Below are positions 8,552-61,695 of a DNA stretch of 64,000 bases, one piece after another. The stretch covers positions 170,927 through 234,926 of the forward strand of contig NZ_JARZHG010000009.1 of NCBI RefSeq assembly GCF_029946505.1. Reading direction: 5' to 3'. Under the pieces are notes generated by a model, which was not told the origin of the DNA, ran no database searches, and saw only the letters and a list, made by a program, of their open reading frames with translations. This stretch comes from Polyangium sp. y55x31 (GTDB lineage: Bacteria; Myxococcota_A; Polyangia; Polyangiales; Polyangiaceae). Position numbers and translations under genes: made by a program. Numbering within the stretch: position 1 is the first letter of the stretch; each line of letters starts with the position of its first letter.

Positions 8552-8701
8552 ACCTGCCAAATGTAAGGAAACAACGCATTGACAACGCAAAGCGTGACGG
8601 TTCAGGCGCCGCCGCCGCTGCGCGGTGCGTAGCGTCGTTCCCACCGCGCGCCACGAAAAAGGATGGAACGCGCAGATCTTGCGGGATCTCTTGGGGAAAC
8701 G

Positions 8702-10432
8702 TCACGTGAGCTCCAGCCAGGTTCGTCCATCCGAACCCCACGGCTCGTAGACGAGAACGCGCTCGCTCGCGGCGAGGTTCAGGCCGAGCAAGGCACGCTC
8801 GGCCACCGGCGAGAGGCCCAGTTCCCCGAGCACCGAGAGCGCCGTCCGAGCCACGGACGCCGCTGCCGGCGGCGGCCCCTCCCCCCGCGGCGGCGTGACG
8901 AGCCGAGGCTCGAGCGGCCCGAGCCCCGCGAAGTCCGACGCCCGAGCGACCGCGTCCGAGAAGCCCCCGAGCTCGTCGACGAGCCCACGCGCCCGCGCCT
9001 CGGTCCCGCTGTAAATGCGGCCCTGCGCGAGCTTGTCGATGTCCTCGAAGGGCCGGCCTCGGCCGCGCGCGACCACGCCCACGAACGTCCGGTAGAAGGC
9101 GTCGACCTCGGACTCGAGCACCGCACGCTCGGACGCTTCGAGCGGCCGGACGGGCGAGAACAGATCGGCGCGCGCTCCTCGCTTGACCACGTCCGTCGAC
9201 ACGCCGAGCTTCTCGAGCAGCCCGCGCAGGACGAAGTGCGCCGACACGACGCCGATGGAGCCCGTGATGACCTGGGGCTCGGCGATGATGACGCGCGCCG
9301 CCGCCGCGACGTAGTAGCCGCCGCTCGCCGCGACGTTCGAGAGGTACGCGACGACCGGCTTCTCCTTCGCGAGCAGCTCGACCTCGTGGTGGATGCGATC
9401 CGAGGCGACCGCGCTGCCGCCGGGTGAATCGATGTGCAAGACGACGGCCGCGATGCGTCGGTTGCTACGCGCCGCGCGGAGCGCCCGGACGATGCGGTCC
9501 TCGACGGCGAGCTTGCCGAGCGAGAAGCGGCTGCGCGAGACGATGGGCCCGTGCACCTCGACGAGGCCCACGACCGGCCGCGGCAAGAGCGGCCGGAAGC
9601 GGCGGGTTCGACGCGCTGCGAAGTAGTCGCCGGCCGACACCCAGCGCGCCGTCGGGGCCGGCTCCTTGCCGAGCAGCTTCGCGACCTCGTCCTCGTAGGC
9701 GACGGCATCCACGAGGCCGAGCTCGGCGGCGCGGCTCGCTCGGTAGGGCGCCTCGTCGACCCAGCGTGACGCGACCGTCACGTCTCCGCCGCACCGCTCC
9801 GCGAGCGCGCGGACGAGCGCGTCGTGACGCGCGCCGAGCACCTCGCCGAGCTGCTCGCGTTGCGCCTCGCTCATCGCGTCGCGCACGAGCGGCTCGGCGG
9901 CGGACTTGTACGTGCCGCGCGCAAAAACTTCGGGCTCGACCCCGATCTCGGCGAGGGCCCGCCGGAGGTACCGACCCGTCGCCGCGTAGCCGATCGGCGC
10001 GACGAGCGTCTCCGGACCGACGACGACGCGGCTCCCGGCGGACGCGAGGTACATCGTGTCGTTGTCCGCGCCCGTCGGCAGGTAGAAGACGACCTCCTTG
10101 CCCGCCTCCTCGAGGCTCGCGAACACCTTGCGCAGCGAGGCGAGCACGCTCGGACCGGCCGAAAGGCCGTCGAGCCGGACGAAGAGGCCCGCCGCTCGGT
10201 CGTCTCCGGCGATGAGCTCGCAGAGCTCGCGCACCCGCGTGACCGAGAGCGGCGGGCGCACGCGGCGCAGGATTCTGGCGAGCCCACGTGGCTTCGAGGG
10301 CAGCGTGTCGACGACGGGGCCGTCGAGGTCGAGCACGACGTAGCCGCCCTTCGGGATGGCGAACGCGCGCCGGAGCTGCCGGAGGGGCATCACGAGGAGG
10401 AGGAGGAGGTTCGTGAGGACGGAGCGCAGCAA
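8702..10432 (-). CDS. sppA: signal peptide peptidase SppA (protease IV, 67K type)
   Basis: N-terminal signal anchor and two ClpP/crotonase-like S49 domains. Catalytic Ser region SGGYY and Lys region are present. Confidence 0.85.
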   Translation of the reverse strand: MLRSVLTNLLLLLVMPLRQLRRAFAIPKGGYVVLDLDGPVVDTLPSKPRGLARILRRVRPPLSVTRVRELCELIAGDDRAAGLFVRLDGLSAGPSVLASLRKVFASLEEAGKEVVFYLPTGADNDTMYLASAGSRVVVGPETLVAPIGYAATGRYLRRALAEIGVEPEVFARGTYKSAAEPLVRDAMSEAQREQLGEVLGARHDALVRALAERCGGDVTVASRWVDEAPYRASRAAELGLVDAVAYEDEVAKLLGKEPAPTARWVSAGDYFAARRTRRFRPLLPRPVVGLVEVHGPIVSRSRFSLGKLAVEDRIVRALRAARSNRRIAAVVLHIDSPGGSAVASDRIHHEVELLAKEKPVVAYLSNVAASGGYYVAAAARVIIAEPQVITGSIGVVSAHFVLRGLLEKLGVSTDVVKRGARADLFSPVRPLEASERAVLESEVDAFYRTFVGVVARGRGRPFEDIDKLAQGRIYSGTEARARGLVDELGGFSDAVARASDFAGLGPLEPRLVTPPRGEGPPPAAASVARTALSVLGELGLSPVAERALLGLNLAASERVLVYEPWGSDGRTWLELT

Positions 10433-31495: not shown

Positions 31496-31656
31496 TCCCG
31501 GACGATCGAAAGCAGCCGACAATCGTCGTTCGGGACAGGCTATCGACTTTCGCGGAAAGGGGCAAGCGAGGCGCTCGAAGGGCGCCTGGTCGCGCCCTTT
31601 TTCCGGTGCGCCCTCTCGCGAGGGCAACATGGGTTGACTAGACTCCGCGCGCACCG

Positions 31657-32718
31657 ATGAAGATCACCCGGCTCGGACTACGCCAGTTCACGGTGTTCTC
31701 GGACGTGACGTTCGAGTTCGCTCCTGGGGTCAACGTCTTCATCGGCGAGAACGGGACGGGCAAGTCGCACGTCCTCAAGCTCCTCTACGCGCTCACGGAG
31801 GCGACCCGCCGTTTCGCGACGCGCGGGCCCCTGGAAGACGGGCTGGAACCGACGCTTCCCCACCTCGTCCAGGGCATGCTCAGGGGTGTCTTTCAACCCG
31901 ACGACTTGAGCAGCTTCCTCTCCGCGGTGCCGGGTCGGGCGACGCTCACGCTCGAGTGGGAGCGCGCCAGGCTGGAGGTCACGCTGGAGGACGACGGAGC
32001 GAGCTCCACGCTCACGGCGACGGCCGAAGGCGCGATCGCGGAGGTGGGCCCGCCCCTCTTCATCCCCCCTCGCGAGGTGCTCTCGATCTTCCCGGGCTTC
32101 GCCTCCGCATGGCTCAAGCGCGAGTCCGCGTTCGATCGGACGTATTTCGATCTCTGCGTCGCGCTCGACCTCAAGCCCCTCCGCAAGGGAGGGCCCAAAG
32201 CGCTGCTCGATCCGATCGAGCGTGAGCTCGGCGGCAACGTCGTGATGAAGGACGGGCGCTTCTACCTCGCCTATCCGGGGGGCGACATGGAGATGCCCAT
32301 GGTCGCCGAAGGGGATCGCAAGCTCGCGATGATCGCCTGGCTGCTCATGAACGGATCGCTCTCCGAGAACGCCTATTTGCTCTGGGACGAGCCGGAGGCG
32401 AACCTCAACCCGAAGCGCGCACGCCTGACCAGCGATACGGCTGCGGCGCTTGCCCACGCGGGCGTCCAGGTCTTCCTCGCCACGCACGATTATGCGCTCA
32501 CCTCCGAGCTCGCGCTGAAGGTCGACACCGGGTCGCTTCGAGCTAGCGAGGCCGCCTTCCACGCGTTCCGGCGCGTCGCCGAAGGGCCATCGGTCGTCGT
32601 GGAGCGCGGAGAGAGGCTCGCCGAGCTTTCGAACAACGCGATCCTCGACGCGCTCGCGTCGCTCCACGCGCGGGAGCAGGAAGCCCTGTTCACGACGGAC
32701 GAGGAAGCTCCCCGGTGA
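31657..32718 (+). CDS. ABC-type ATPase (AAA_21/AAA_15, RecF/SMC/OLD N-domain-like), no TOPRIM domain
   Basis: Walker A GENGTGKS, an ABC-signature-like [13 protein letters not shown], Walker [11 protein letters not shown], and H-loop LATHD. 353 aa. Confidence 0.8.
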
Positions 32719-33272
32719 AGACCGTCGACGTGGAGCGCATTCGCTTCTCGTTCGGCGAGAGCTGGACGGTGGTGGAGAAGTGGGACGACTGCCGTCTGTA
32801 TCGCGAGGGCATCCACGAGCTCGACGGAACGAAGGCCGTGGACATCGTGGGCGTGCGCGACGGTGACCTCTACCTGATCGAGGTCAAAGATTTCCGGGGC
32901 CACGCGATCGAGACGAAAAGGCGTCAACCGAGCGAGCTCCCGCTGGCCATCGGCTGCAAGGTCCGCGACACCATCGCCGGCTTGATCGGGGCGAGCAGAC
33001 AGAGCGGGGAGCCGTGGGTCGAGACGTGCGCGAGGCTCCTGCTGGACGGCAAGCGGCGTATCTACGTGATCGCGTGGATCGAGGATCCGGCCCTTCGCGC
33101 GGCAGAACCCATCAGCAAGCGGCAAGTATGGCAAAAGGTGCGGGCCGATCAGCTCAGGCAGCGCCTCGCTTGGCTGACGAACCGCGTCACGGTGGCGAGC
33201 CCTCTCGATGGGGCGGCGCTTGCAGACGTGATCGGGAAGAACCTCCCGGGCGCCGGCGGCAGCCCCGCCTGA
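32715..33272 (+). CDS. small PD-(D/E)xK (restriction-endonuclease-fold) nuclease-like protein, coupled to the upstream ATPase
   Basis: GTG 32715 overlaps the ATPase stop (GTGA). The motif VDIVGVRDGDLYLIEVKD matches D...(D/E)xK. 185 aa with no other recognisable domain. Confidence 0.6.
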   Translation: MKTVDVERIRFSFGESWTVVEKWDDCRLYREGIHELDGTKAVDIVGVRDGDLYLIEVKDFRGHAIETKRRQPSELPLAIGCKVRDTIAGLIGASRQSGEPWVETCARLLLDGKRRIYVIAWIEDPALRAAEPISKRQVWQKVRADQLRQRLAWLTNRVTVASPLDGAALADVIGKNLPGAGGSPA

Positions 33273-33274
33273 CG

Positions 33275-34024
33275 TCAGCCCGCCGCTTCCTCGAACCCGA
33301 GCGCGTCCTCCCCGAGTGAAATCCCGTTCGCGAGGAGGATCTCCGCGGCGTGGTCGATCGTGAGGATCATCGCGCGGGCCTGGAGCGCGCGTTGCTCGTC
33401 CGCGGGGAGATCACCGGGCCGGCCCGAGGTCGCGTGCTGGAGGAGGATCGCGGCGGTGACGCTCACGTTGAGGCTCTCGGCGAAGCCGCGCATGGGCACG
33501 CGCACGCTGCGCTTGCAGCCGGCGACGAGCTCCTCGTGGATGCCGTCGCGCTCGTTGCCGAGGACGAGGCAGACCTTGGGGATCGAGCGCAGATCCTCGG
33601 GCGCGAGCTCGCCTTGCGGGTGGGTCGCGACGAGCTCGTGGCCGGAGGCGGCGAGGACGTCGAGGGCCGCTCGGCTCGTGGGGTAGGTGCGGACGTGGAC
33701 CCATTGCTCGGAGCCACGCGCGACCTGGCGGGCCGCGAGGAACGAGATGCCGCCGCGCTCGACGACGTGGAGGCGCTGCACGCCGAACGCGTCACAGGAC
33801 CGGAGGACGGCGGCGCCGTTGTGCGGGTCGTACGGCGCGTCCATGAGGACGGTGACGGAGCCGAGGCGAGAGGAGAACACCGCGTCGAAGCGGGCCTGTC
33901 GCTCGGCCGTGAGGAAGGGGCCGAGCACGCGGACGATCGCGGCGTGGTCGAGGCTTCCGAGCCGGGCGAGGAGCCGCTTCTGCGCGAGCTCGACCTGGAT
34001 GGCATGAGGGGTCCTGCGGCGCAT
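33275..34024 (-). CDS. SpoU/TrmH-family RNA 2'-O-methyltransferase
   Basis: SPOUT fold motifs (LVLGNERDG, SLNVSVTAAILL). Confidence 0.8.
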   Translation of the reverse strand: MRRRTPHAIQVELAQKRLLARLGSLDHAAIVRVLGPFLTAERQARFDAVFSSRLGSVTVLMDAPYDPHNGAAVLRSCDAFGVQRLHVVERGGISFLAARQVARGSEQWVHVRTYPTSRAALDVLAASGHELVATHPQGELAPEDLRSIPKVCLVLGNERDGIHEELVAGCKRSVRVPMRGFAESLNVSVTAAILLQHATSGRPGDLPADEQRALQARAMILTIDHAAEILLANGISLGEDALGFEEAAG

Positions 34025-34078: not shown

Positions 34079-34954
34079 TCAGCGTGCCGCGGCCATGGCG
34101 AAGGCGATCCCGCTCTGGACCGTGCTCCGTGTGACGATGCCGCCGAGGTCGGCGTGGATCTCGACCAGCGTCTGCGCGACGTCGCGACGAACGCCGGTCA
34201 GCACCACCTTCGCGCCGAGGAGCTGCACCGCGCGGGCGGCCTGGACGAGCGCGTCGGCCACCTGCGTGTCGACCACCGAGATGCCCGTGATGTCGAGGAT
34301 GGCCGTGCGGGCGCCCCGCTCGTTCACGCCTCGGAGGAGCGTCTCCATGGCCTGCCGCACGCGTTGCGCGTCGAGCACGCCGATGAGCGGCATCACCACG
34401 ATCTCGTCGGTGACCGGGATGAGCGGCGTCGACAGCGCGGACAGCGCCGCCTCCTGCGCCTCGATCACCGCTTGCCGGCGCATCCCCTCGGCGAGCGCCT
34501 GCTCGGCGCGCTTGCGATCGGTGATGTCGCGCGCGACGGCGATCACCACGTCGTCCGACATCGGCGTGATGTTCGTGCTGAAGAAGGCCTCCCGACCACC
34601 GGCCGGCAGGTTGTACTCGACCGTGACGAGCCCCTTGCTCTCCAGCGCCGCGCGGACGTGGGACAGGAGGAAATCCGCCATCTCGGGCGGCATGACCTCG
34701 TGCAGCGTCTTGCCGAGCAGCTCGTGGCTCGGCTTGTAGAGAAGGTCTGCCCCGGTGGGCGCGATCTTCAGGTACCGCCCCTCCCCGTTCATGACGATCA
34801 CCACGTCCGTCATGGCCGTGAACATGGCCCGGAGCTCCGCCTCGGCGGCGAGCGCCCCGGCGAGCTCCGCCTCGGCTGCCGCGAGCCGCGCCCGCAGCAC
34901 CTCGACCTCGGCCCGAAGCGACGGGCTTTCATCCTGATCAGCGTTGTCCCGCAT
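34079..34954 (-). CDS. PAS plus STAS domain protein (RsbR/anti-sigma-antagonist-like)
   Basis: A coiled-coil, a PAS fold, and a C-terminal STAS domain (VVMPLIGVLDAQRVRQAMETLL...ILDITGI). The start is set at internal ATG 34954, because the track start overlaps the divergent gene at 35118. Confidence 0.65.
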   Translation of the reverse strand: MRDNADQDESPSLRAEVEVLRARLAAAEAELAGALAAEAELRAMFTAMTDVVIVMNGEGRYLKIAPTGADLLYKPSHELLGKTLHEVMPPEMADFLLSHVRAALESKGLVTVEYNLPAGGREAFFSTNITPMSDDVVIAVARDITDRKRAEQALAEGMRRQAVIEAQEAALSALSTPLIPVTDEIVVMPLIGVLDAQRVRQAMETLLRGVNERGARTAILDITGISVVDTQVADALVQAARAVQLLGAKVVLTGVRRDVAQTLVEIHADLGGIVTRSTVQSGIAFAMAAAR

Positions 34955-35117
34955 CCGTGCGTACGTCCCCTGCGGGACGGACGATGTCCAGGCCCCTGTC
35001 GCGCCTCTTTTCGAGGTGTCGCCGACCCCACCGCCCCCGGGCGGTGGAGCGGAGTGATGGCGAGCACGAGACCAAGCGGGACTACCCAAGGACGTCCGGA
35101 TCTGGGAGGCTCCGCGC

Positions 35118-36290
35118 ATGTGGCGCCGCGTCGAGCTTCGGAATTACCGCAGCATCGAGCACGTGAAGGTCGACCTCGCCCCGTTCACCCTGCTCGTCGG
35201 GCCGAACGGAAGCGGGAAGTCGAACTTTGCCGATGCGCTGGCGTTCGTGCGGGATGTGGCGTTCGACGCGGTGACGGCGGTTGAGCGACGAGGCGGAATA
35301 GGTGAACTGCGACGCTGGCGCCCCACGAAGCCGACGGACATCTCTGTAGACATCCGAAGTGCCGCTTCTGAGCCGGCACTCGAGAGCACGTACGTACGGC
35401 ACTACTTCAAGATTCATAGCGGCCGTGAAGGCAGGTGGTCCTTCAGCCGAGAAATCGTCGAGGTAGTGAGGGACGGGGACGGCGTCTTCAATGTCGTCAG
35501 GGAACGCGGGAGAATTTCGCTGCACACGGAAAGCGCTCTCGACCGACTCACGGAGTTGGCGTCGGCGGCCGCCAGCCGAGCGCTCAGCGACATGAGCAGC
35601 GCGATGGTACTGGCGCGCCAATTCCGAGCCATGAAGAGCCACGCAGGCTTGCGAGAAGTGCGACGGATCCGCCTCACCCCTGACGCGATGCGACTCCCGC
35701 AGCCTGCCACGGAGAATACACGCCTGGATGAGACGGGCAGCAATGTGGCCGCCGCTTACCGAAGTCTCAAGGCAGACGCTCAGGAAGATGTTCTCGCAGC
35801 CATGCAGAAGATCGTGCCGGGTCTGTCAGGGATCTACGTGGAGAACTTCGATCGCTTCCTACTTCTCAAGTTCGCGCAGCGGCAAGGAGATGAACAGGCG
35901 ACATTTTCGGCCGCCGCCATGTCCGAGGGAACTTTGCGCGCCCTTGGTATCCTCATTGCAGCGGAGCAGATGACCAAGGACGAACTCTTGATCATCGAAG
36001 AACCCGAAGTAGCCATCCACGTCGGAGCCGCCCAGCTCCTCTTCGACGTCTTGAAGCGCGCCTCGGAGCGCGGCGCCGTCCTCGTCACGACCCACAGCGC
36101 CGACCTCCTGGACGCCGCCAAGGACGAAGAGATCCTCGTCTGCGCCTACCGCGACGGCGTCACGAAGATCGGCCCCCTCGCCTCCGAGCAACGCGCTGTC
36201 GTGAAGGAAGGTCTCTTCTCCGTCGCGGAACTCATGCGCTCCGAGCCCCTGCGCATCGAGGGCGAGCCGATCCCCGCGGTCGAGCCGTGA
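35118..36290 (+). CDS. ABC-type ATPase (AAA_15/AAA_21, OLD/RecF-like), paralogous to 31657..32718
   Basis: Walker A GPNGSGKS, signature-like MSEGTLRALGIL, Walker B LIIEEPEVAIH, and H-loop VTTHS. The 5' half has clearly lower GC and A/T-ending codons (aga, ata, gga) that are foreign to this genome. Confidence 0.8.
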   Translation: MWRRVELRNYRSIEHVKVDLAPFTLLVGPNGSGKSNFADALAFVRDVAFDAVTAVERRGGIGELRRWRPTKPTDISVDIRSAASEPALESTYVRHYFKIHSGREGRWSFSREIVEVVRDGDGVFNVVRERGRISLHTESALDRLTELASAAASRALSDMSSAMVLARQFRAMKSHAGLREVRRIRLTPDAMRLPQPATENTRLDETGSNVAAAYRSLKADAQEDVLAAMQKIVPGLSGIYVENFDRFLLLKFAQRQGDEQATFSAAAMSEGTLRALGILIAAEQMTKDELLIIEEPEVAIHVGAAQLLFDVLKRASERGAVLVTTHSADLLDAAKDEEILVCAYRDGVTKIGPLASEQRAVVKEGLFSVAELMRSEPLRIEGEPIPAVEP

Positions 36291-36883
36291 AGCGCCTCGT
36301 CTGCATCGTCGAGGGCAAGGGCGAGGTGCAGGCCGTCCCGAACCTCTGCTTTTCCGTCTTCCGTTACCTCGGCGTGGAGGGCTGGCTCGTCGACAAGGAG
36401 CCGATCAAACAGCCGCGTAGCCAGCTCGTCGACGAGCGCGTCCCGAGCCCCCGCCGTCCTTGCCGCAAAGAAGGGATCACACGCGCCGTCGCGCTCGCCC
36501 GCGCACGACGTGCGAACGCCGCGTTGATCCTCTGCGACGCCGACGATGACTGCCCGGCCACCTGGGGCCCGGATGCCGCGCGCGCCATCCCGACCGTCAT
36601 CGATGGAGCCGCAGTCATGGCCTCACGCGAGTACGAGACATGGCTCCTCCACAGCTTCTCGGACGAGGAACGCAGGAAGGCCAAGGTCACCACCGCCGAC
36701 CTGCGCAAGCGCGACGCGAAGGGACTACTCGCCCGGCTCGTACCTGGTTACTTGCCGACCACCCACCAGCTCGACATCACCCGTCGCATCGATGTCGCTC
36801 GTGTCCGAACCCACTCGGACAGCTTCGACAAGCTCGTCCGTGACCTCGCTCGGCTGTGTGGCGTGACACCCCCGCCACGATGA
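36287..36883 (+). CDS. TOPRIM-like DUF4276-type protein, coupled to the upstream ATPase (split-OLD / AbiL- or PARIS-like partner)
   Basis: GTG 36287 overlaps the ATPase stop (GTGA). Conserved Glu in CIVEGKGE and a DxD-type motif LILCDADDDC are as in TOPRIM. 198 aa. Confidence 0.65.
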   Translation: MKRLVCIVEGKGEVQAVPNLCFSVFRYLGVEGWLVDKEPIKQPRSQLVDERVPSPRRPCRKEGITRAVALARARRANAALILCDADDDCPATWGPDAARAIPTVIDGAAVMASREYETWLLHSFSDEERRKAKVTTADLRKRDAKGLLARLVPGYLPTTHQLDITRRIDVARVRTHSDSFDKLVRDLARLCGVTPPPR

Positions 36884-36934
36884 GCCCGCGTCTCTGGAGA
36901 CAGGACCGCAAGCGTCATCGGAGACGGTCACGAC

Positions 36935-37385
36935 CCTCCTGCAAGCCTGGTCGACCTGTCTCCAAGACAGTCCCGACCCTCCCGAATCCCTCCTCGACCG
37001 GCCTCTGGGACGGCCCCGACCCTCCCGAATCCCTTCTCGACCACCCTCCGAGGTGACTCCGACCCCTCCCCGAACCCTCGCCGACCTGTCTCCAAGACGG
37101 CCCCGACCCTCCCGAACCCCTCGTCGACCCCCCTCCGAGGTGACTCCGACCCCTCCCCAAACCCTCGCCGACAGGCTGCCGAGATGGTCTCGACCTTCCC
37201 GCAGGCCTCGTCGACCCCCCCCCGAGGTGACTCCGACCCCTCCCCAAACCCTCGACGACAGGCTGCCGAGACGGTCTCGACCCTCCCGCACCCCTCGTCG
37301 ACCTGTCTCCGAGGTGACTCCGACCCCCCCAGAACCCTCGTCGACCTGTCTGCCGACCTGGTCTCAACTCACCCAATCGACCGGA
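36935..37385. repeat. degenerate tandem-repeat array (~44-bp sub-unit, ~89-bp super-unit, about 5 copies) in a convergent intergenic region
   Basis: Units such as GACGGCCCCGACCCTCCCGAA(C/T)CCCT(C/T)GTCGACC alternate with CTCCGAGGTGACTCCGACCCCTCCCC(A/G)AACCCTCG(C/A)CGAC. It is not a CRISPR array: there are no regular unique spacers. Confidence 0.75.
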
Positions 37386-44324: not shown

Positions 44325-46880
44325 TTAGTTGTTCTGCACGATGATGGCCCCGTACGCGGGCAGCTCGAACGACGTGCCCGTCGCGCCCGAGACGAGCTCC
44401 GTCGCGGCGGCGCCCCACGTGATCGTCTGCGGCGTCGACTTGCGGCTGAGGACGACCGAGAGCGTCTCCGTGGCGTTCTGGAGCTTGTATTCGTAGACGT
44501 CGGCCGTGTTCTTCACGAGCGAGATCGTCGCGGCGAGGTCCGTGAAGACCGCGTGCGCCTTCCGGATCGCGACGAGATTCCGGTAGTGGTGCAAGAGGCT
44601 CGACGTGTTGGCTTCCTGCGCGGCCCACGAAGCCGGCTCCTCTTCCGCCATGAACTTCACGAACGGATAGTCCGGGTTCGGCGCGACCGTGACGCCCACG
44701 CCCGCGAACGGCAGCACGTCCTTGTTCGCCAGGTTCGTGGCCGCCGGGTCGATGTTCCAGCCCGTCGTCTTGTCACCGACGAACACGTTCTTCTCGAACC
44801 AGCTCATCGGCTCGCGGATGAACTCGTCGCGGTCCCAGGACTCGTTGCCGACGTACTTGTCGCGCTTGCCCTTCTTGCCGAACTCCTCGCCGTAATAGAT
44901 GACCGGCATGCCCGGCACCGTGAGCACGATCGTCGCGGCCTGCTTCAGCTTGGCTTCGAGCGCCGCGCCCGCGCCCTCGAACTGCGTCGCCGGCCGTTCG
45001 AGGTCGTGGTTCGACAGGAACCGCTCGAGGTAATGGTGGGGGCTGCCGCCATTGCCGCCCGCGGCGAGGTCCGCCTGCACCTTGTTCACGTACCCCACGA
45101 AATCGACCGCGTCGCCCGTCTGCCCGTTCACGAAATTGCCGACGATGCTGCGGAACGGGAAGTCGAACTGCGAATCCATGTCGCTCCCGTACGGCATCAT
45201 CTTGTCGTATTGCGCCGGATCGTCCCAGCGATTCTCGCCCGTCAGGAGCACGGCGGCCGAGCCCGCGGGCCGCACGACGTCCTTCTTGACGAAATAGTTG
45301 AACTCCTTCCACCACACGTGCGTGCCGTGCTTGTCGAGCGGGATGCCGGCGTTGTCGTCGAACTGATCGATGTGCTTCGACGCGTCGAGGCGATACCCGT
45401 CCGCCCCGAGATCGATCCAGTGCTCCGCGATCTTCTTCATCTCGGCGCGCACCGCGGGGTTTCTGTAATTGAGCTCCGGCATCGGCCCGCCGAAGATCTG
45501 GTGGTAGCACTGGTAATTCTTGCAAGCCCACATCACGGCCGAGCCGTCCCACGGGTGCCCGTCCGCCAGCATGTTCGAATACTGGTCGGACCAGACGAAC
45601 CAGTCGTGGTACTTGTCGTAATCGGGGTGCTTCGGATCCGCGCCCGCGATGAACCAGGGGTTCACGTCGGCCACGTGGTTCTGCACGAGATCGAGGATGA
45701 TCTTGATCCCCGCGGCGTGCGCCGCCTCCGTGAGATCGGTGAAATCCTTCATCGTGCCGACCGACGGATCGATGTCGTAGAAATCCGTCGTGTCGTAGCC
45801 GTGGTAGCTCTTCGCCTTGAACACCGGCGTCATCCAGATGGCGTCGGCGCCGAGGTCCTTCAGGTACGGCAAGGCTTTCCGTAGACCGACGAGATCCCCG
45901 ATGCCGTCCGTCTTCGTCTCGTCGATGCCGCTCTCCGTCTTCGAATCACCGACCGCCTTCGTCGCGCCGCCGTCCGCGAACGTGCGCACGATGAGCTGGT
46001 ACATGATCCCCTGGCTGCCCCACGACGCCCAGTCGGCCGCGTCCGTGATCGTCGAATACGAGATCGGCGTCAGGTCGAGCACGTCCGACGTGTCCTCGAG
46101 CGTCTGCCCATCCACATCGAGCTTCGTCGAGATCTTGTAATGGACGGCCTGGCCCGGGGTCAGGCCCGTGATCACGAGGCCATTCTTGTTGATGTCGTCC
46201 GCGGCCGCCCACGTCACCTTCTTGTCGAGCGCATCCGCGGCCGCGCCGTACTCGACCGTCCCCGTCGAGCCCTTCGCCACCCGGAACATCATGCGCACGC
46301 TGCCATTGCCGAGGTCGATGAAATCCTTCGGCCGGGAGATCTCGTACGCCGGCCCCGCCGCCGTCGGCGGCGTCTTGGAGATGGCCTGGCCCTGCGTGAT
46401 CCAGCATTCAGCGATGTTCGGATCCTGCGCATTCTTCGTGAGGTCGACGAAACGAACCCCCGTCTCGACGTCCTTCTTGCAGTCGCCGTTCGTGCATTGC
46501 ACCGGGATGAGCCCGAGCCACGCGTCGTCCGCCTCGCCCGTCACCGTCACGCGCACGTCGGTGTACACGCCGAACTCGTCGGTCCCATCGAACATCTGCG
46601 GCGTTCCCCACGTCGGCGACGTCGAGCCCGCGCCCCAGAAATGCACGCCCCACGCCTTCGGGTCGCCGCCGTCCTGCAGCCGATAATGGATCCTGACGAA
46701 GCTCTCTTGCGCGATCCCGCCCGCGCCGCCCGTGCCGCCGCCCGCGCCGCCCGTGCCCGTATTCGTGGTGAGCCCGGATCCGCCCGTGCCGTTGTTGAGA
46801 TCCTCGCCTTCGCACCCCGCAGCCAGCGCAAGGACGCAAGCGAGCGAACCGAGGACCGAATAACCAAGATATCGTCTCAT
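44325..46880 (-). CDS. secreted GH13 alpha-amylase-family glycoside hydrolase lipoprotein with N-terminal accessory beta domains
   Basis: Lipobox LAAGC. GH13 conserved regions DLVQNHV, GYRLDASKH, and EFGK-type, with a catalytic triad context. 851 aa. Confidence 0.85.
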   Translation of the reverse strand: MRRYLGYSVLGSLACVLALAAGCEGEDLNNGTGGSGLTTNTGTGGAGGGTGGAGGIAQESFVRIHYRLQDGGDPKAWGVHFWGAGSTSPTWGTPQMFDGTDEFGVYTDVRVTVTGEADDAWLGLIPVQCTNGDCKKDVETGVRFVDLTKNAQDPNIAECWITQGQAISKTPPTAAGPAYEISRPKDFIDLGNGSVRMMFRVAKGSTGTVEYGAAADALDKKVTWAAADDINKNGLVITGLTPGQAVHYKISTKLDVDGQTLEDTSDVLDLTPISYSTITDAADWASWGSQGIMYQLIVRTFADGGATKAVGDSKTESGIDETKTDGIGDLVGLRKALPYLKDLGADAIWMTPVFKAKSYHGYDTTDFYDIDPSVGTMKDFTDLTEAAHAAGIKIILDLVQNHVADVNPWFIAGADPKHPDYDKYHDWFVWSDQYSNMLADGHPWDGSAVMWACKNYQCYHQIFGGPMPELNYRNPAVRAEMKKIAEHWIDLGADGYRLDASKHIDQFDDNAGIPLDKHGTHVWWKEFNYFVKKDVVRPAGSAAVLLTGENRWDDPAQYDKMMPYGSDMDSQFDFPFRSIVGNFVNGQTGDAVDFVGYVNKVQADLAAGGNGGSPHHYLERFLSNHDLERPATQFEGAGAALEAKLKQAATIVLTVPGMPVIYYGEEFGKKGKRDKYVGNESWDRDEFIREPMSWFEKNVFVGDKTTGWNIDPAATNLANKDVLPFAGVGVTVAPNPDYPFVKFMAEEEPASWAAQEANTSSLLHHYRNLVAIRKAHAVFTDLAATISLVKNTADVYEYKLQNATETLSVVLSRKSTPQTITWGAAATELVSGATGTSFELPAYGAIIVQNN

Positions 46881-57140: not shown

Positions 57141-60100
57141 TCAGGGCGTGGTCATGCACTGATCCAGCAGTCGATAGCCGTTCACGTGCGTGGCCGACAC
57201 CAGCGTGCGCGACACCGTATTGCCGCTCGACCCCCAGCCCCGCCGGTAGAGCACGTCGTACGTCCCCGAAGGCACCTTCCCGCCATAGGTGTTCGGACTG
57301 AGCACGTAGACCCCGGGCGACTGATACTGATAGCTGTAGCCGCCGATGTAATGCGCGGCGTCCGTATCCTTCGCCACGAGGTAGATGTCCGCGCCGTCGT
57401 AATCGGTGTTCTTCGTCGGCAGCGGCCCGCCCGCGAGCGTGAGCGTCCCGCCGACGATCGACACCGGGATGTCCACGTTCAGCGTACTCGCGCCCGCCGG
57501 AATCGCGACGTTCGTCGCGAGCAACCGATAGCCGTTCACGTGCGTGGCCGACACCAGCGTACGCGTCACCGTGTTCCCGCTCGACCCCCAGTTCCGCCGG
57601 TAGAGCACGTCATACGTGCCCGCAGGCACCTTGCCGCCGTAGGCGTTCGCAACCAGCACGTACACGCCCGGCGACTGGTACTGGTAGCTGTAGCCTCCGA
57701 TGTAATGCGCGGCCTTCGTGTCCTTCGCCACGAGGTAGATGTCCGCGCCGTCGTAATCGGTGTTCGTCGCGGGTAGCGCCGCGCCCGCAAGCGTCAGCGT
57801 CCCGGTCACGCTCGCCACCGGAATATCAACGTCGAGCGTGTTCGCCCCCGCCGCGAGCGTGACGTTCGTCGCGAGCAACCGATAGCCGTTCACGTGCGTG
57901 GCCGTCAGCAGCGTACGCGTCACCGTATTCCCGCTCGACCCCCAATTCCGCCGGTAAAGCACGTCGTACGTGCCCGCGGGCACCTTGCCGCCGTAGGCAT
58001 TCGCAACCAGCACGTACACGCCCGGGGACTGGTACTGGTAGCTATACCCGCCGATGTAATGCGCAGCCTTCGTGTCCTTCGCCACGAGGTAGATGTCCGC
58101 ACCGTCGTAATCGGTGTTCGTCGCCGGCAGCGCCGCGCCCGCGAGCTTCAGGGTCCCGGTCACGCTCGCCACCGGAATATCCACGTCGAGCGTGTTCGCC
58201 CCTGCCGAGAGCGTGACGTTCGTCGCCAGGAGCCGGTAGCCGTTCACGTGCGTGGCCGTCAGCAGCGTACGCGTCACCGTATTCCCGCTCGACCCCCAGT
58301 TCCGCCGATAGAGCACGTCATACGTGCCCGCGGGCACCTTGCCGCCGTAGGCGTTCGCAACCAGCACGTACACGCCCGCCGATTGGTACTGGTAGCTGTA
58401 GCCGCCGATGTAATGCGCGGCCCCCGTGTCCTTCGCCACGAGGTAGATGTCCGCGCCGTCGTAATCGGTGTTCGTCGCCGGAAGCGCCGCGCCCGCGAGC
58501 GTCAGCGTCCCGGTCACACTCGCCACCGGAATGTCCACGTTCAGCGTGTTCGCCCCCGCCGCGAGCGTGACGTTCGTCGCCAGGAGCCGGTAGCCGTTCA
58601 CGTGCGTCGCCGTCGGCAGCGTACGCGTCACCGTATTCCCGCTCGACCCCCAGTTCCGCCGGTAGAGCACGTCATACGTGCCCGCGAGCACCTTGCCACC
58701 GTAGGTATTCGCCGAGAGTACGTACACGCCCGGCGACTGATACTGATAGCTGTAGCCGCCGATGTAATGCGCGGCCCCCGTATCCTTCGCCACGAGGTAG
58801 ATGTCCGCGCCGTCGTAATCGGTGTTCGTCGCCGGAAGCGGCCCGCCCGCGAGCGTCAGCGTCCCGCTCACGGTCGCCACCGGGATGTTCACGTCGAGCT
58901 TGCTTTCCCCCGCGCCGATGACGACGCCCGTCGCGAGCATCCGGTAACCATTCACGTGCGTGGCCGAAGGCAGCGTGCGCGACACCGTGTTCCCGCTCGA
59001 CCCCCAGCCCCGCCGATAAAGCACGTCGTACACGCCCGCGACCACCTTGCCGCCGTACGTGTTCGGGGAGAGCACGTACACGCCCGGCGATTGATACTGG
59101 TAGCTGTAGCCGCCGATGTAATGCGCGGCCTTCGTGTCCTTTGCGACGAGGTAGATGTCCGCGCCGTCGTAATCGGTGTTCGTCGCCGGCAGCGCCGCGC
59201 CCGCGAGCGTGATCGTCCCATTCACGACGCCCACCGGGATGTCGACGTCGCCCGTGCCGGGGTGCGTGGTCATGCAAGCCCCGCCGTTGCAGCCGGCCGA
59301 GGGCGCGCCCTTGCAGGCGCCCTGCACGTCGCACGCGTCTCCGGTCGTGCACGAAATGCCGTCGTTGCAAGACGTCCCCGGCGACGCGATCACCTTCGGG
59401 AACGACTGCGTGGCCTCATCGCACGCGCCATACGTCACGCACGGGCTGATGCTCACGGGCTTCTGCGGCACGTTCACGTGCACGCACCCCTCCGCGTCCG
59501 CGCCCGCCTGGCTCGGCGCGCAGACCTCCGCGCCCGTGCACCACGCCCCGTCGTCGCAAGCCGCGTTGCTCGTCGTGTGCGACGCGAGGCCGCCCGCGCA
59601 TTTGTCGATCGTGCACGCGACCCCGTCGTCCGGCACGTTCGTGTCGTCGTTCGTCGCGACGCACCCGGCCGCGAGATCACACGAATCGTCCGTGCACGCA
59701 TTGCCGTCGTCACACACCCGCGGGCTGCCGCCGGCGCAGACGCCCGCCTGGCAGGCCTGATCCACGATGCAAAGCGACGTCTGGCACGCCGTCCCGTTGG
59801 CGAGCGGCGTATGCTGGCAGTTCCCGCCTACGACCGCGTCGACCGTGCACGGGTTCTGATCGTCGCACATGGGCGTGTAGCACTGCGCCATCCCGCCCAC
59901 GACCTGGCAGGCCTGGTTCATCACGAGGCAGACGTTCGGCGTGCAGGGATCGTCCGTGCACCCGCCGTTGCCGTCGTCGTGATACCCCGGGTCGCACGTG
60001 CACACGTACGAAGCGCCTTCTCCCGCGCAGACCGTCTTGTTCGGCATGACGCAGGGATTCGGCAAACACGGATCCGTCGTGCAGCCGCCGTTTCCATCGT

Positions 60101-61013
60101 CGTGATAGCCCCCCGCGGCGTCGCACGTATCGCAGGAGGCCCCAGCGAAACCAGCGTCGCACGTGCAGACCACGTGGCCGCCTTCGACCGCGCACGCGCC
60201 ATGGCCCGAGCAGCTCGACGGCGTGCACACCTCGTCGATCACGCAGGCGCCGTTCTGATCGTGATACCCGGGATCGCAGCCGCAGACCGGCGATCCTCCT
60301 TCGACGGTGCATACACTCGCGTGCGGGGCCACGCACGGGTTCGGCAGGCACGGGTCCGTCGTGCAGCCGCCGTTTCCATCGCTGTGATAACCTCCCGCGT
60401 CGTCACACGCGTCGCAAGCGCTCCCGCTCCAGCCGACGTCGCACGTGCACACGGCCTCGCCGCCCTCGTCGTTGCAGCTCCCGTGACCGCTGCACGTCGT
60501 CGGCAGGCACGTCTTGTCCTCGATGCAAACGCCGCCCTCGTCGTGCGTGCCCGGCTTGCACACGCACTTCGCGGTGCCCGAGCTCCCATCACAAACGCGA
60601 TCGGGCGACATGCACGGATCCGGCACGCACGGGTCCGTCGTGCAGCCGCCGCTCCCATCGTCGTGATAACCGCCCGCGGCATCACACGAAGCGCACGTCG
60701 CGCCCGCCCAGCCCTCCGCGCACGTGCAGACGGCCGACCCACTCGAATCGTCACACGTCCCGTGTTCGCCGCAGGGGTTGTTCTGGCAGCTCGCCTCGAG
60801 CACGCACACGCCGCCGTCGGGGTAAGATCCCGGCGGACACCCCGCGTCCGGCTCAGAGGCATCCGGCTCCGAGGCATCGGGCGTCTCGGTGACGTCCCGC
60901 CCGGCGTCGACGGGGCCCGGCGGTATGCCGCCGTCGTCGCCGCAGCCGAGGGCCACGAGCGCGAGGAACACGAGGAGCGTGGGGAGCAAACCCGTCGGGG
61001 GGCGCTTTCGCAT
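57141..61013 (-). CDS. large secreted lipoprotein: N-terminal EGF-like/Cys-rich repeat region plus six near-identical 118-aa tandem repeats
   Basis: The start is set at ATG 61013 (MRKRPPTGLLPTLLVFLALVALGC, lipobox). Repeated CTTDPC(L/V)PNPC...GYHD Cys modules are followed by six copies of NTDYDGADIYLVAKDTxAAHYIGGYSYQYQSPGVYVL...YDVLYRRNWGSSGNTVTRTL... Confidence 0.75.
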   Translation of the reverse strand: MRKRPPTGLLPTLLVFLALVALGCGDDGGIPPGPVDAGRDVTETPDASEPDASEPDAGCPPGSYPDGGVCVLEASCQNNPCGEHGTCDDSSGSAVCTCAEGWAGATCASCDAAGGYHDDGSGGCTTDPCVPDPCMSPDRVCDGSSGTAKCVCKPGTHDEGGVCIEDKTCLPTTCSGHGSCNDEGGEAVCTCDVGWSGSACDACDDAGGYHSDGNGGCTTDPCLPNPCVAPHASVCTVEGGSPVCGCDPGYHDQNGACVIDEVCTPSSCSGHGACAVEGGHVVCTCDAGFAGASCDTCDAAGGYHDDGNGGCTTDPCLPNPCVMPNKTVCAGEGASYVCTCDPGYHDDGNGGCTDDPCTPNVCLVMNQACQVVGGMAQCYTPMCDDQNPCTVDAVVGGNCQHTPLANGTACQTSLCIVDQACQAGVCAGGSPRVCDDGNACTDDSCDLAAGCVATNDDTNVPDDGVACTIDKCAGGLASHTTSNAACDDGAWCTGAEVCAPSQAGADAEGCVHVNVPQKPVSISPCVTYGACDEATQSFPKVIASPGTSCNDGISCTTGDACDVQGACKGAPSAGCNGGACMTTHPGTGDVDIPVGVVNGTITLAGAALPATNTDYDGADIYLVAKDTKAAHYIGGYSYQYQSPGVYVLSPNTYGGKVVAGVYDVLYRRGWGSSGNTVSRTLPSATHVNGYRMLATGVVIGAGESKLDVNIPVATVSGTLTLAGGPLPATNTDYDGADIYLVAKDTGAAHYIGGYSYQYQSPGVYVLSANTYGGKVLAGTYDVLYRRNWGSSGNTVTRTLPTATHVNGYRLLATNVTLAAGANTLNVDIPVASVTGTLTLAGAALPATNTDYDGADIYLVAKDTGAAHYIGGYSYQYQSAGVYVLVANAYGGKVPAGTYDVLYRRNWGSSGNTVTRTLLTATHVNGYRLLATNVTLSAGANTLDVDIPVASVTGTLKLAGAALPATNTDYDGADIYLVAKDTKAAHYIGGYSYQYQSPGVYVLVANAYGGKVPAGTYDVLYRRNWGSSGNTVTRTLLTATHVNGYRLLATNVTLAAGANTLDVDIPVASVTGTLTLAGAALPATNTDYDGADIYLVAKDTKAAHYIGGYSYQYQSPGVYVLVANAYGGKVPAGTYDVLYRRNWGSSGNTVTRTLVSATHVNGYRLLATNVAIPAGASTLNVDIPVSIVGGTLTLAGGPLPTKNTDYDGADIYLVAKDTDAAHYIGGYSYQYQSPGVYVLSPNTYGGKVPSGTYDVLYRRGWGSSGNTVSRTLVSATHVNGYRLLDQCMTTP
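57186..59240. repeat. six tandem ~354-bp near-identical coding repeats inside gene 57141..61013
   Basis: The motif GTGTCCTTCGCCACGAGGTAGATGTCCGCGCCGTCGTAATCGGTGTT recurs at about 57372, 57717, 58074, 58425, 58784 and 59139 with roughly 354-bp spacing. Confidence 0.8.
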
Positions 61014-61695
61014 GGCGCGCACTTTATCGGGGTTCGTTCGGGCTCGGAAGAGCGAGCGAGCGTTCGACGCGCAGCAGCCGACATGGGTGGACCGGGAGCG
61101 GAGAGCGCGACGCCGCCAGGGCCTCCGCGCCTTCGAGGCCTCCCGCGTGGTCACCGCTTCGGTTTGCCAAAGCGACTCGCACGGTTGTTAGCCGATTTTT
61201 GCGGTCGCTCATCATGCCACCGTCGATTGTCGGCGGTGCGGATGAGGGGCGCTGCAGATGGATGCCCGCTTTGCACATCTCGCCGCGCTGCGCAAGCGGA
61301 TGCTAATGGGCGTGGGCGCCTCGGGCTTCAGCTCCTCCTTATACGTGACGATGAGGCACTGGGGGGGTCGAGAAGGCCCCACCTCGTTGCGTTGCCGAAT
61401 TCGCTTTGTGCACAATCAACTTCGCGGCACTCAAAGTGTCACGGACGAAAATTCCCTCTCGTCGTTCTCGAATTTTGATGTATATTCATTACGTCCATAC
61501 ATCGTTAACGAGAATACGACATGGCGACCACCCGTGAGGCCGTGGGCGCATTGGCGCGCCCATACGACGGGGCCTCTCCCGCACGTGCGCGAGTCAACTC
61601 GGGTTCGCTCAAAAAGGAGCAAATAACACGAGAGCGGCGCAGAAGACCGTGATGATGAGCTTTTCGCTGCGTTCTGGCGGCGATCTGGAGGACCG

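Follow-up and report, generated by a model that had tools for sequence, protein, structure and literature searches.

A HEC-01-type pair of ATPase and putative TOPRIM nuclease genes in a variable neighbourhood of the Polyangium chromosome

Two overlapping genes at positions 35118-36883 of a 64,000-nucleotide stretch of Polyangium sp. y55x31 DNA (contig NZ_JARZHG010000009.1; the whole stretch is referred to below as the window) encode an ATPase and a small DUF4276 protein, and raise the question of which system they represent, how they came to reside at this locus and what the two proteins might do. A preliminary description of this DNA regarded the pair as an OLD-family nuclease split into two polypeptides, similar to PARIS or AbiL, with foreign codon usage, and as one half of a mini defence island whose other half is a second ATPase cassette upstream. 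We found that the pair corresponds to the PADLOC candidate system HEC-01, and we consider it fairly probable that it is a horizontally acquired HEC-01 operon in which a trigger-sensing ATPase would control a metal-dependent TOPRIM nuclease, with a presumed role against invaders. The features of the cassette and of its immediate surroundings are as follows.

35118-36290, plus strand: gene A, 390 aa, ABC-type (SMC/Rad50/OLD-like) ATPase of the PADLOC HEC-01A type
36287-36883, plus strand: gene B, 198 aa, PADLOC type HEC-01B, a DUF4276 protein bearing catalytic residues of the TOPRIM type; presumed nuclease effector
35002-35117, plus strand: cassette DNA upstream of A, with a GGGAGG Shine-Dalgarno-like motif; the promoter is presumed to lie here
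35298-35897, plus strand: central part of A (residues 61-260), with low G+C at third codon positions (GC3) and deep divergence when compared with alleles of other Polyangium species
35448-35597, plus strand: segment of A (residues 111-160) that is hypervariable and a candidate for sensing or for determining specificity
36921-37356, no strand: 43-bp tandem array directly 3' of B, detected with Tandem Repeats Finder (TRF)

Both open reading frames (ORFs) exist at the positions given in the preliminary description, and the coupling of the partner gene could be read directly from the sequence: A and B overlap by four nucleotides, GTGA, formed by the GTG start codon of B (36287-36289) and the TGA stop codon of A (36288-36290). 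The GGGAGG motif occupies 35104-35109, 8 nt 5' of the ATG of A. No sigma-70 consensus promoter was found upstream of A, and a scan of 34.8-37.5 kb for promoter and terminator consensus sequences gave nothing above shuffled controls.

Gene A encodes an intact ABC-type ATPase lacking a long coiled coil, as follows from its Pfam matches, invariant motifs, predicted structure and alignment with P2 Old. In Pfam, A matches AAA_21 (4.8e-26), AAA_15 (1.3e-21) and SMC_N (2e-14). Across 60 homologues of A, the Walker A residues G28/G33-K34-S35, the signature S269-x-G271, the Walker B pair E294-E295 and the H-loop histidine H326 are invariant. The AlphaFold model of A has a pLDDT score (predicted local distance difference test) of 92, and its top Foldseek matches are SMC/Rad50 heads, PtuA and the OLD nuclease 6p74 (E ~1e-12, TM ~0.5). 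In addition, a profile of the A family aligned to P2 Old over the region from Walker B to the H-loop with an hhalign probability of 94%. An 'AAA family ATPase' of Polyangium sp. y55x31 has the same sequence (100% identity).

The partner protein B has a single Pfam match at E<=0.01, DUF4276 (PF14103; 27.5 bits, E 4.5e-6, residues 75-187), so that the earlier assignment of an ABC/OLD-type ATPase accompanied by a DUF4276 protein, rather than by a member of some unrelated family, is borne out for both genes. All 54 aligned homologues of B match DUF4276 (best 5.2e-15), and the homologue on a viral contig from IMG/VR (locus L069) does so with 46.8 bits. The two motifs singled out in the preliminary description, CIVEGKGE (residues 6-13) and CDADDDC (residues 83-89), are both present, and the TOPRIM-type Glu and DxD within them are invariant or nearly so across the family. 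Among homologues that are 28-50% identical to B, residues E9, G10, D84, E117, W119, K145 and Q161 are invariant, and G12, D86 and E115 are conserved in at least 90%. In the structural model of B (pLDDT 95.2), E9 comes after strand 2-8, and D84-A-D86 is found where strand 78-85 ends. Judged from the alignment, the conserved residues are the predicted TOPRIM Glu and DxD, a second acidic pair and a lysine, and they are a stronger argument than the Foldseek results. A Foldseek search of the PDB with B ranked the C-terminal TOPRIM regions of the class 2 OLD nucleases 6nk8 and 6njx highest, with modest scores (E 7.5e-3, probability 0.94, TM 0.41-0.47). DUF4276 has been assigned to the Toprim superfamily in an independent published analysis (PMC12065111).

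By sequence, B is not demonstrably a TOPRIM protein of the OLD type: it does not match Pfam OLD-like_TOPRIM (PF20469), which two of the 54 homologues match at E ~0.05. Comparison of the B family with P2 Old by hhalign was not significant (E 0.11, probability 0.5%), the 22 aligned columns being the VEGxxE motif, and a profile search of PDB sequences for a solved relative of B returned chance-level matches only. The profile of B retrieved 2049 clusters (50% identity) at E<=0.001, of which 34 at E<=1e-30; the subfamily found in the window is therefore a small branch of a broad family.

By profile similarity, the A-B pair is a new, stand-alone instance of the PADLOC candidate system HEC-01, a type that is already catalogued, since both proteins match the corresponding models over nearly their full length. 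A matches the HEC-01A model PDLC04178 at 5.6e-88 (293.7 bits; residues 3-383 aligned to positions 10-385 of the 399 in the model) and eight more HEC-01A models at 1e-34 to 1e-45, and B matches the HEC-01B model PDLC04196 at 5.9e-34 (residues 1-191 aligned to positions 1-192 of the 197 in the model) and PDLC04200 at 5.5e-30. The adjacency that defines HEC-01 is also present, the two genes being encoded on one strand with the 4-nt overlap. PADLOC called this pair HEC-01 and the upstream pair HEC-02. HEC-01 (Hma-embedded candidate 01; PADLOC-DB v2) has been described as a pair of ABC ATPase and TOPRIM proteins with a conserved metal site (bioRxiv 10.1101/2024.01.29.577857). Embedding in an Hma system, made up of helicase, methylase and ATPase, is how the type was discovered, and PADLOC detects it without that requirement. 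An Hma system is absent around A-B: ten neighbouring window proteins scanned with PADLOC include no defence-system component, the sole match being that of a GlgB-like model to the protein encoded at 44325-46880. The window pair thus has the same two components as HEC-01 in the same order, the ABC ATPase followed by the small TOPRIM-like (DUF4276) protein, but it stands alone among metabolic and regulatory genes, flanked by genes for a TrmH-type methyltransferase, a PAS-STAS protein and a 430-aa protein. It also differs in belonging to a myxobacterial subfamily, which in Polyangium is accompanied by the 43-bp array 3' of B.

Matches of A to the ATPases of other systems are all far weaker than those to HEC-01A: PDC-M07A 5e-30, mad3 3e-25, AriA 4.6e-24 and 1.5e-22, NsnB 4.1e-23, AbiLi 1.2e-20, Old 1e-19 and GajA 5e-14. 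For B, no PADLOC model other than HEC-01B matches at E<=0.01, including those of AriB, AbiLii and mad4. The OLD nucleases (P2 Old, the class 2 enzymes BpOLD and XccOLD, and GajA of Gabija) and HEC-04 resemble the pair in combining an ABC ATPase with a TOPRIM domain bearing the Glu/DxD metal site, but in these proteins both domains reside on one chain, whereas they are encoded by separate genes in the window; moreover, Gabija has a helicase partner, and the window contains no UvrD or GajB. PARIS provides the best-understood mechanism for a split pair of ABC ATPase (AriA) and TOPRIM nuclease (AriB): the AriA scaffold holds AriB until a phage protein triggers its release, and AriB then cleaves tRNA (PMC11464382). 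However, AriB belongs to DUF4435, and B matches no AriB or DUF4435 model at E<=0.01; A, with 390 aa, is shorter than the 464-aa AriA chains in the PDB, and its AriA matches cover only partial stretches. The comparison with PARIS or AbiL made in the preliminary description therefore holds as an analogy but not as membership. AbiL was rejected as the source of the pair, A matching AbiLi at 1.2e-20 and B giving no AbiLii match.

DUF4276 proteins also accompany ABC ATPases in two larger systems. MADS is an eight-gene methylation-associated system that includes the ABC ATPase Mad3 and the DUF4276 protein Mad4, both of which are required for MADS defence. The best NCBIfam match of A is indeed MAD3, but with 104.4 bits against a cut-off of 420; B has no mad4 match, the mandatory mad6-8 and the methylase are absent from the window, and there is no mad match among the scanned neighbours. 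In NsnC variants of Menshen, DUF4276 is the predicted Toprim nuclease effector beside the ABC ATPase NsnB (PMC12065111). Menshen differs in consisting of three genes, including NsnA, and in carrying DUF4276 as the C-terminal domain of NsnC; neither NsnA nor NsnC is found in the window. Membership in a type III toxin-antitoxin (ToxIN-like) system was likewise rejected: the tandem array lies downstream of B and not upstream, it is missing from the HEC-01 loci outside Polyangium, and an Rfam search of 31-38 kb at E<=1 gave no match, hence no retron-like or other known RNA beside the nuclease gene.

Several observations indicate that A and B act as one unit. In each of the 10 distinct contexts examined, the ATPase gene lies immediately 5' of the DUF4276 gene. 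Besides the window, these contexts are P. fumosum, two metagenome-assembled genomes (MAGs), one of Polyangium and one of Planctomycetes, two further metagenome contexts, Archangium lipolyticum, a Sorangium, another large genome and one contig of IMG/VR. The genes around the pair are unrelated from one context to the next and serve mostly metabolism or regulation. An overlap of the stop and start codons has been retained in the window, in P. fumosum, in the MAG OTE_70b and at loci L064 and L069. Both genes are under purifying selection: in comparison with P. fumosum and OTE_70b, the ratio of nonsynonymous to synonymous substitution rates (dN/dS) is 0.24 for A and 0.09-0.13 for B. The family also includes ~540-aa ATPases with a 155-aa N-terminal extension. 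A metagenomic protein of 609 aa, P0314, carries AAA_21 at the N-terminus and DUF4276 at residues 419-598 of a single chain. This natural fusion supports a direct functional link between A and B, and it fits the split-OLD idea of the preliminary description and the term 'split OLD-like' for the pair.

How the cassette is embedded becomes clear from the genes on its left side, which are the following.

31574-33273, plus strand: HEC-02 cassette, with an ABC ATPase gene (31657-32718), a gene for a 185-aa partner (32715-33272) and 83 bp of its own upstream DNA
33275-34024, minus strand: SpoU/TrmH-type RNA methyltransferase (Pfam SpoU_methylase 1.2e-31); resident, belonging to neither system
34079-34954, minus strand: gene of a PAS-STAS protein (Pfam PAS_4 2.9e-16, STAS 1.4e-13); resident

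The upstream cassette, earlier described as an ATPase with a PD-(D/E)xK partner, is HEC-02: the ATPase matches HEC-02A at 2.5e-78 and the 185-aa protein matches HEC-02 partner models at 4e-21 and 3.4e-20 in PADLOC. Payne et al. defined HEC-02 as an ABC ATPase with a NERD-like protein of the PD-(D/E)xK type, and showed that it protected E. coli and that both genes were needed (bioRxiv 10.1101/2024.01.29.577857). The longest ORF of the PAS-STAS gene runs to 35119, with 55 extra codons (34955-35119) and a 2-nt head-to-head overlap with the ATG of A. Its start is most likely at 34954, because blastn homology to relatives stops at 34909-35001; therefore ~160 bp separate the divergent PAS-STAS gene and A.

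To trace the two cassettes, 60 loci around TrmH orthologues of Polyangiaceae were fetched and the window genes mapped on them; TrmH orthologues are present in all 60, including loci without either cassette. Five other Polyangium genomes were comparable across the region.

Polyangium sp. 15x6 (TrmH 97% identical; locus L004): HEC-01 absent, HEC-02 absent, no tandem array
Polyangium sp. 6x1 (L011): HEC-01 absent, HEC-02 absent, tandem array present
P. jinanense (L005): HEC-01 absent, HEC-02 absent, an unrelated 8.2-kb insert between the PAS-STAS and TrmH genes
P. fumosum (L001/L006): HEC-01 present in the same slot, HEC-02 absent, an extra gene of 1108 aa
MAG OTE_70b (L002/L007): HEC-01 between the TrmH and PAS-STAS genes, HEC-02 present at the same site, array after B

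The arrangement in OTE_70b was confirmed in an independent assembly (L003). Both cassettes are clean insertions missing from the nearest Polyangium species compared. From the empty sites, HEC-01 extends over about 35002-36877, and homology to the cassette-less sp. 6x1 ends at ~35001; the last ~42 bp upstream of A (35076-35117) are common to the window and OTE_70b, despite the other slot used in the latter. HEC-02, 1.7 kb long, extends over 31574-33273; in its place, sp. 15x6, sp. 6x1, P. jinanense and P. fumosum share a homologous spacer of ~14-17 bp. At the left edge of HEC-02 there is a hairpin with a T-run behind it (31580-31602). We saw neither target-site duplications nor terminal repeats at the edges of either cassette, and no integrase or transposase around them.

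The base composition of the A-B cassette is atypical as well. In the window, which has a G+C content of ~70%, a plot along the region confirmed a dip at 35.2-36.2 kb, with a sliding minimum of 0.595-0.63 and surroundings of 0.70-0.74. The GC3 of A is 0.77, the lowest among 32 coding-like ORFs of the window (mean 0.896, standard deviation 0.047; about -2.7 standard deviations), and that of B is 0.81-0.82; the HEC-02 cassette is near native (0.86-0.88). The anomaly reported for A in the preliminary description is thus real, but it is located in the centre of the gene and not in its 5' half: low GC3 is confined to codons ~51-300, the central two thirds (0.62-0.80 in 50-codon windows), and the first 50 codons have 0.88. 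The A/T-ending codons named there as conspicuous are few, with one AGA, one ATA, five GGA and 15 GAA. In all eight loci compared, the G+C content of the A-B cassette is below that of the flanks (0.55 versus 0.67 on contig L069).

One copy of the pair, that of L069, resides on a predicted viral contig, which also speaks for mobility. Taken together, the cassette was probably acquired horizontally and lies in a variable neighbourhood of the Polyangium chromosome, and it is not found at the same locus with native codon usage in all relatives, three of the five lacking it altogether. Other inserts occupy the same region elsewhere in the genus. In two Polyangium MAGs (L008 5204-9278 and L013 52-3470), the three-gene PADLOC candidate PDC-M28 A/B/C, which includes a ParA-like ATPase and a 740-aa P-loop/TPR protein and has a G+C content of 0.54-0.57 in a genome of ~0.70, is located between the 430-aa gene and trmH. 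Three further Polyangium MAGs (L009 6061-8280, L010 7716-9926 and L012 6559-8778) carry a low-GC insert (0.55-0.57) encoding an M13-family peptidase lipoprotein and a protein of 216-223 aa. The 8.2-kb insert of P. jinanense (L005 1759-10000) comprises four ORFs of 382-721 aa with native GC3, which gave no PADLOC match and one weak Pfam match (DUF6261). The 1108-aa gene of P. fumosum (L001 4308-7634), located between the tandem array and the 430-aa gene and not found in the window, has no Pfam or PADLOC match. In sp. 15x6 the PAS-STAS protein is unusually divergent, with 67% amino acid identity versus 97% for the adjacent TrmH; therefore the resident genes here are also mosaic.

The proposal of a mini defence island formed by the two cassettes is supported, because both are insertions, HEC-01 occupies another slot in one MAG and PDC-M28 is found in the same neighbourhood of other Polyangium MAGs. 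In a local tree of TrmH and PAS sequences, the branching of the window genome, P. fumosum, P. jinanense and sp. 6x1 is unresolved (bootstrap <50%), with the PAS sequence of sp. 15x6 divergent; therefore the gains and losses are not orderable.

Comparison of A with the alleles of P. fumosum and OTE_70b, zone by zone, revealed that the gene itself is a mosaic. Residues 1-60 and 341-390 are 94-96% identical, with a synonymous divergence (dS) of 0.14-0.45, and residues 261-340 are 90% identical with intermediate dS (0.61-0.97). In contrast, residues 61-260 are only 27-66% identical, with dS of 1.0-2.0 where estimable, one sub-segment comparison being saturated, and dN/dS of 0.14-0.57. The low-GC3 region and this diverged stretch coincide. 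Inside the stretch, the column entropy of residues 111-160 is 2.1-3.3 bits versus a mean of 1.3, with indels at residues 141-150; residues 113-165 are 14-40% identical to those of 59 homologues, while other segments are mostly 37-95% identical; and 35461-35679 is not alignable to OTE_70b by blastn. In the structural model, residues 111-160 fold into three beta strands plus one helix, an insertion that lies between Walker A and the signature motif. A donor for the central part of A was not found, no homologue being more than 40% identical over residues 113-165. The simplest reading of these observations is that the history of the centre of A is older than, and distinct from, that of the remaining cassette, either through allele replacement by recombination or through allelic lineages that have been maintained for long. 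This central part is the best candidate for a trigger-recognition surface, and Payne et al. have proposed inserts of HEC ATPases as specificity determinants (bioRxiv 10.1101/2024.01.29.577857).

What might such a pair do? The analysis has shown the ABC ATPase fold of A, the intact catalytic motifs of both proteins on a predicted TOPRIM-type fold in B, the operon structure, purifying selection, presence/absence pattern, atypical composition and hypervariable segment. A mechanism can be sketched by analogy with OLD, Gabija, PARIS and HEC-04. A would dimerise around ATP, like the heads of SMC, Rad50, OLD and PtuA, and form a complex with B in which the nuclease is held in check. The variable insert of A may recognise a phage-derived or other foreign trigger, and the trigger, together with ATP binding or hydrolysis by A, would activate or release B, which in turn might cut invader DNA or host RNA/DNA and so stop the infection. 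The closest mechanistic precedents would be PARIS and the OLD/Gabija/HEC-04 group, with its ATPase-regulated nucleases. The fused relative HEC-04 requires the ATPase and the TOPRIM nuclease residues alike (bioRxiv 10.1101/2024.01.29.577857), and in E. coli B one HEC-01 representative from cold-seep metagenomes was reported to give protection from at least one of the phages T4, T5 and T7 (bioRxiv 10.1101/2024.09.26.614923).

Four points weigh against this explanation. The HEC-01 representative of Payne et al. protected against none of the phages tested (bioRxiv 10.1101/2024.01.29.577857). Published phage tests of HEC-01 concern other representatives, none of them from the subfamily found here or in myxobacteria. 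The 27.5 bits scored by B fall just short of the DUF4276 gathering threshold of 30.2. Finally, the cassette may have a long past in the genus, with repeated losses or exchanges, and not be a recent arrival, because the divergence of B and of the ends of A is similar to that of the flanking core genes (dS of 0.14-0.53 versus 0.22-0.45 for TrmH, PAS-STAS and the 430-aa gene in comparisons with the P. fumosum and OTE_70b copies; values of 0.45-0.53 versus 0.31-0.45 lie within these ranges).

Two loci of the family bear on the alternative of an orphan restriction module, derived from a methylation-linked (MADS-like or type I-like) system whose self-marking DNA methyltransferase has been lost or is encoded elsewhere in the genome. 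In Archangium lipolyticum (L068 5072-7990), a 972-aa fusion of SAP, HsdM_N and N6_Mtase domains with a HEC-01A-type ATPase is followed by a DUF4276 gene, which links the family to methylation-based systems. The only match in a viral collection, the A-B pair on IMG/VR contig UViG_2911276420_000001 (L069 4814-6582), is flanked by a PD-(D/E)XK nuclease gene on one side and by DNA polymerase A and DNA methylase genes on the other, a context that looks like a prophage replication module; the methylase gene is ~3 kb from the pair. No B homologue was found in 72,556 plasmid records. Many homologues are labelled 'type I restriction enzyme M protein' by JGI, A weakly matches MAD3 models and, in MADS, mad5 can be deleted only when mad2 or mad3 is deleted too, all of which would suit such a module. 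We nevertheless regard it as unlikely. There is no methyltransferase in or beside the cassette, the ten scanned neighbours being devoid of defence components, and the SpoU/TrmH gene is a resident whose orthologues are equally present at the cassette-less loci. Eight of the ten contexts consist of the bare pair without a DNA methyltransferase, the exceptions being those in Archangium lipolyticum and on the viral contig. The MAD3 score of 104 bits is set against the cut-off of 420 and B lacks a mad4 match at E<=0.01, and an unprotected restriction nuclease is expected to be lethal.

Another possibility is that A and B form a selfish addiction module, akin to toxin-antitoxin systems, in which the ATPase restrains a nuclease toxin and the pair persists since its loss is harmful, without protecting from phages. 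The compact, mobile two-gene organization with atypical G+C in every host examined would be in line with this, as would the Pfam description of AAA_21 as 'putative AbiEii toxin, Type IV TA system' (TA, toxin-antitoxin) and the published HEC-01 test in which no defence was seen. On the other hand, clean losses are evident in several Polyangium lineages, contrary to strong addiction; other defence candidates lie alongside the cassette; one HEC-01 representative did protect; and a hypervariable ATPase segment suits an arms race better. We regard an addiction module as just as unlikely as an orphan restriction module.

The tandem array next to B deserves separate consideration. It consists of ~10 copies of a 43-bp unit (or five of 87 bp) and, according to TRF, spans 36921-37356 instead of the 36935-37385 of the preliminary description. 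In P. fumosum an array of 8.6 copies, 93% alike, lies directly 3' of B (L001 3936-4303), and in OTE_70b 2.1 copies do so (L002 10603-10689) though the slot differs. Polyangium sp. 6x1 has 7.1 copies, 95% alike, on the reverse strand (L011 ~8674-8979), although A-B is missing. The empty site of this species still aligns with the last ~13 nt of B, stop codon included; because it keeps this remnant of the 3' end of B, sp. 6x1 looks like having lost A-B by deletion. Neither cassette nor array is present in sp. 15x6 and P. jinanense, and the array is absent after B in all seven HEC-01 loci outside Polyangium. The array therefore appears to be linked to the cassette within Polyangium and not to be a general part of HEC-01. 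The idea that the 43-bp unit is a dispersed repeat was discarded, the unit being confined to this array within the window and to this locus among 69 loci; a metagenome scan with the core of the unit gave single matches only, which were read as chance.

One could imagine that the mobile unit of Polyangium comprises the ATPase, the TOPRIM nuclease and the array, with the array serving either as RNA partner of the nuclease (as antitoxin, as decoy or by mimicking a substrate, comparable to type III toxin-antitoxin systems) or as a substrate for recombinase-free recombination, and with the sensor centre of the ATPase swapped as a specificity module. We consider this composite scenario quite doubtful.

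A role in housekeeping DNA repair or recombination, analogous to that of RecF (ABC ATPase) and RecR (TOPRIM), is highly improbable: A does match RecF/RecN/SMC N-terminal models, but the RecF and SMC scores are all far under the family cut-offs, the pair is missing in three of the five Polyangium genomes used for comparison, among them the two whose TrmH is closest, its composition is atypical and its flanks are unrelated in every genome examined. Equally improbable is an inactive remnant without remaining function, as might be suspected from the variable presence among relatives and the apparent deletion in sp. 6x1, given that both frames are intact with all catalytic motifs preserved, dN/dS is 0.09-0.24 and the overlapping stop and start codons have been kept.

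Two further observations concern the far end of the window. The lowest-GC stretch of the whole window (0.56-0.62) is located at 61200-64000, where an ORF running from 61696 to the window end encodes at least 768 aa; its product, in which E, S, T and I abound, gave no Pfam or PADLOC match. According to the ORF listing, the minus strand at 57141-61154 encodes a secreted-looking protein of 1337 aa, with Cys-rich EGF-like modules followed by ~7 near-identical repeats of ~100 aa.

The A-B cassette, which we read as a HEC-01 operon, leaves the current understanding of such systems unchanged. It does add a naturally occurring case of HEC-01, a type that has been little studied; the limits of the insertion are exactly defined, sister species show the empty site, and a second slot is known. 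Residues 111-160 of the ATPase, hypervariable and located inside a segment with high, in part saturated, synonymous divergence, are a concrete candidate for the specificity determinant. The trmH neighbourhood of Polyangium collects HEC-01, HEC-02 and PDC-M28 with no recombinase gene in sight. As such a hotspot, it could serve the search for further systems in myxobacteria, a group whose phage defence is hardly explored.

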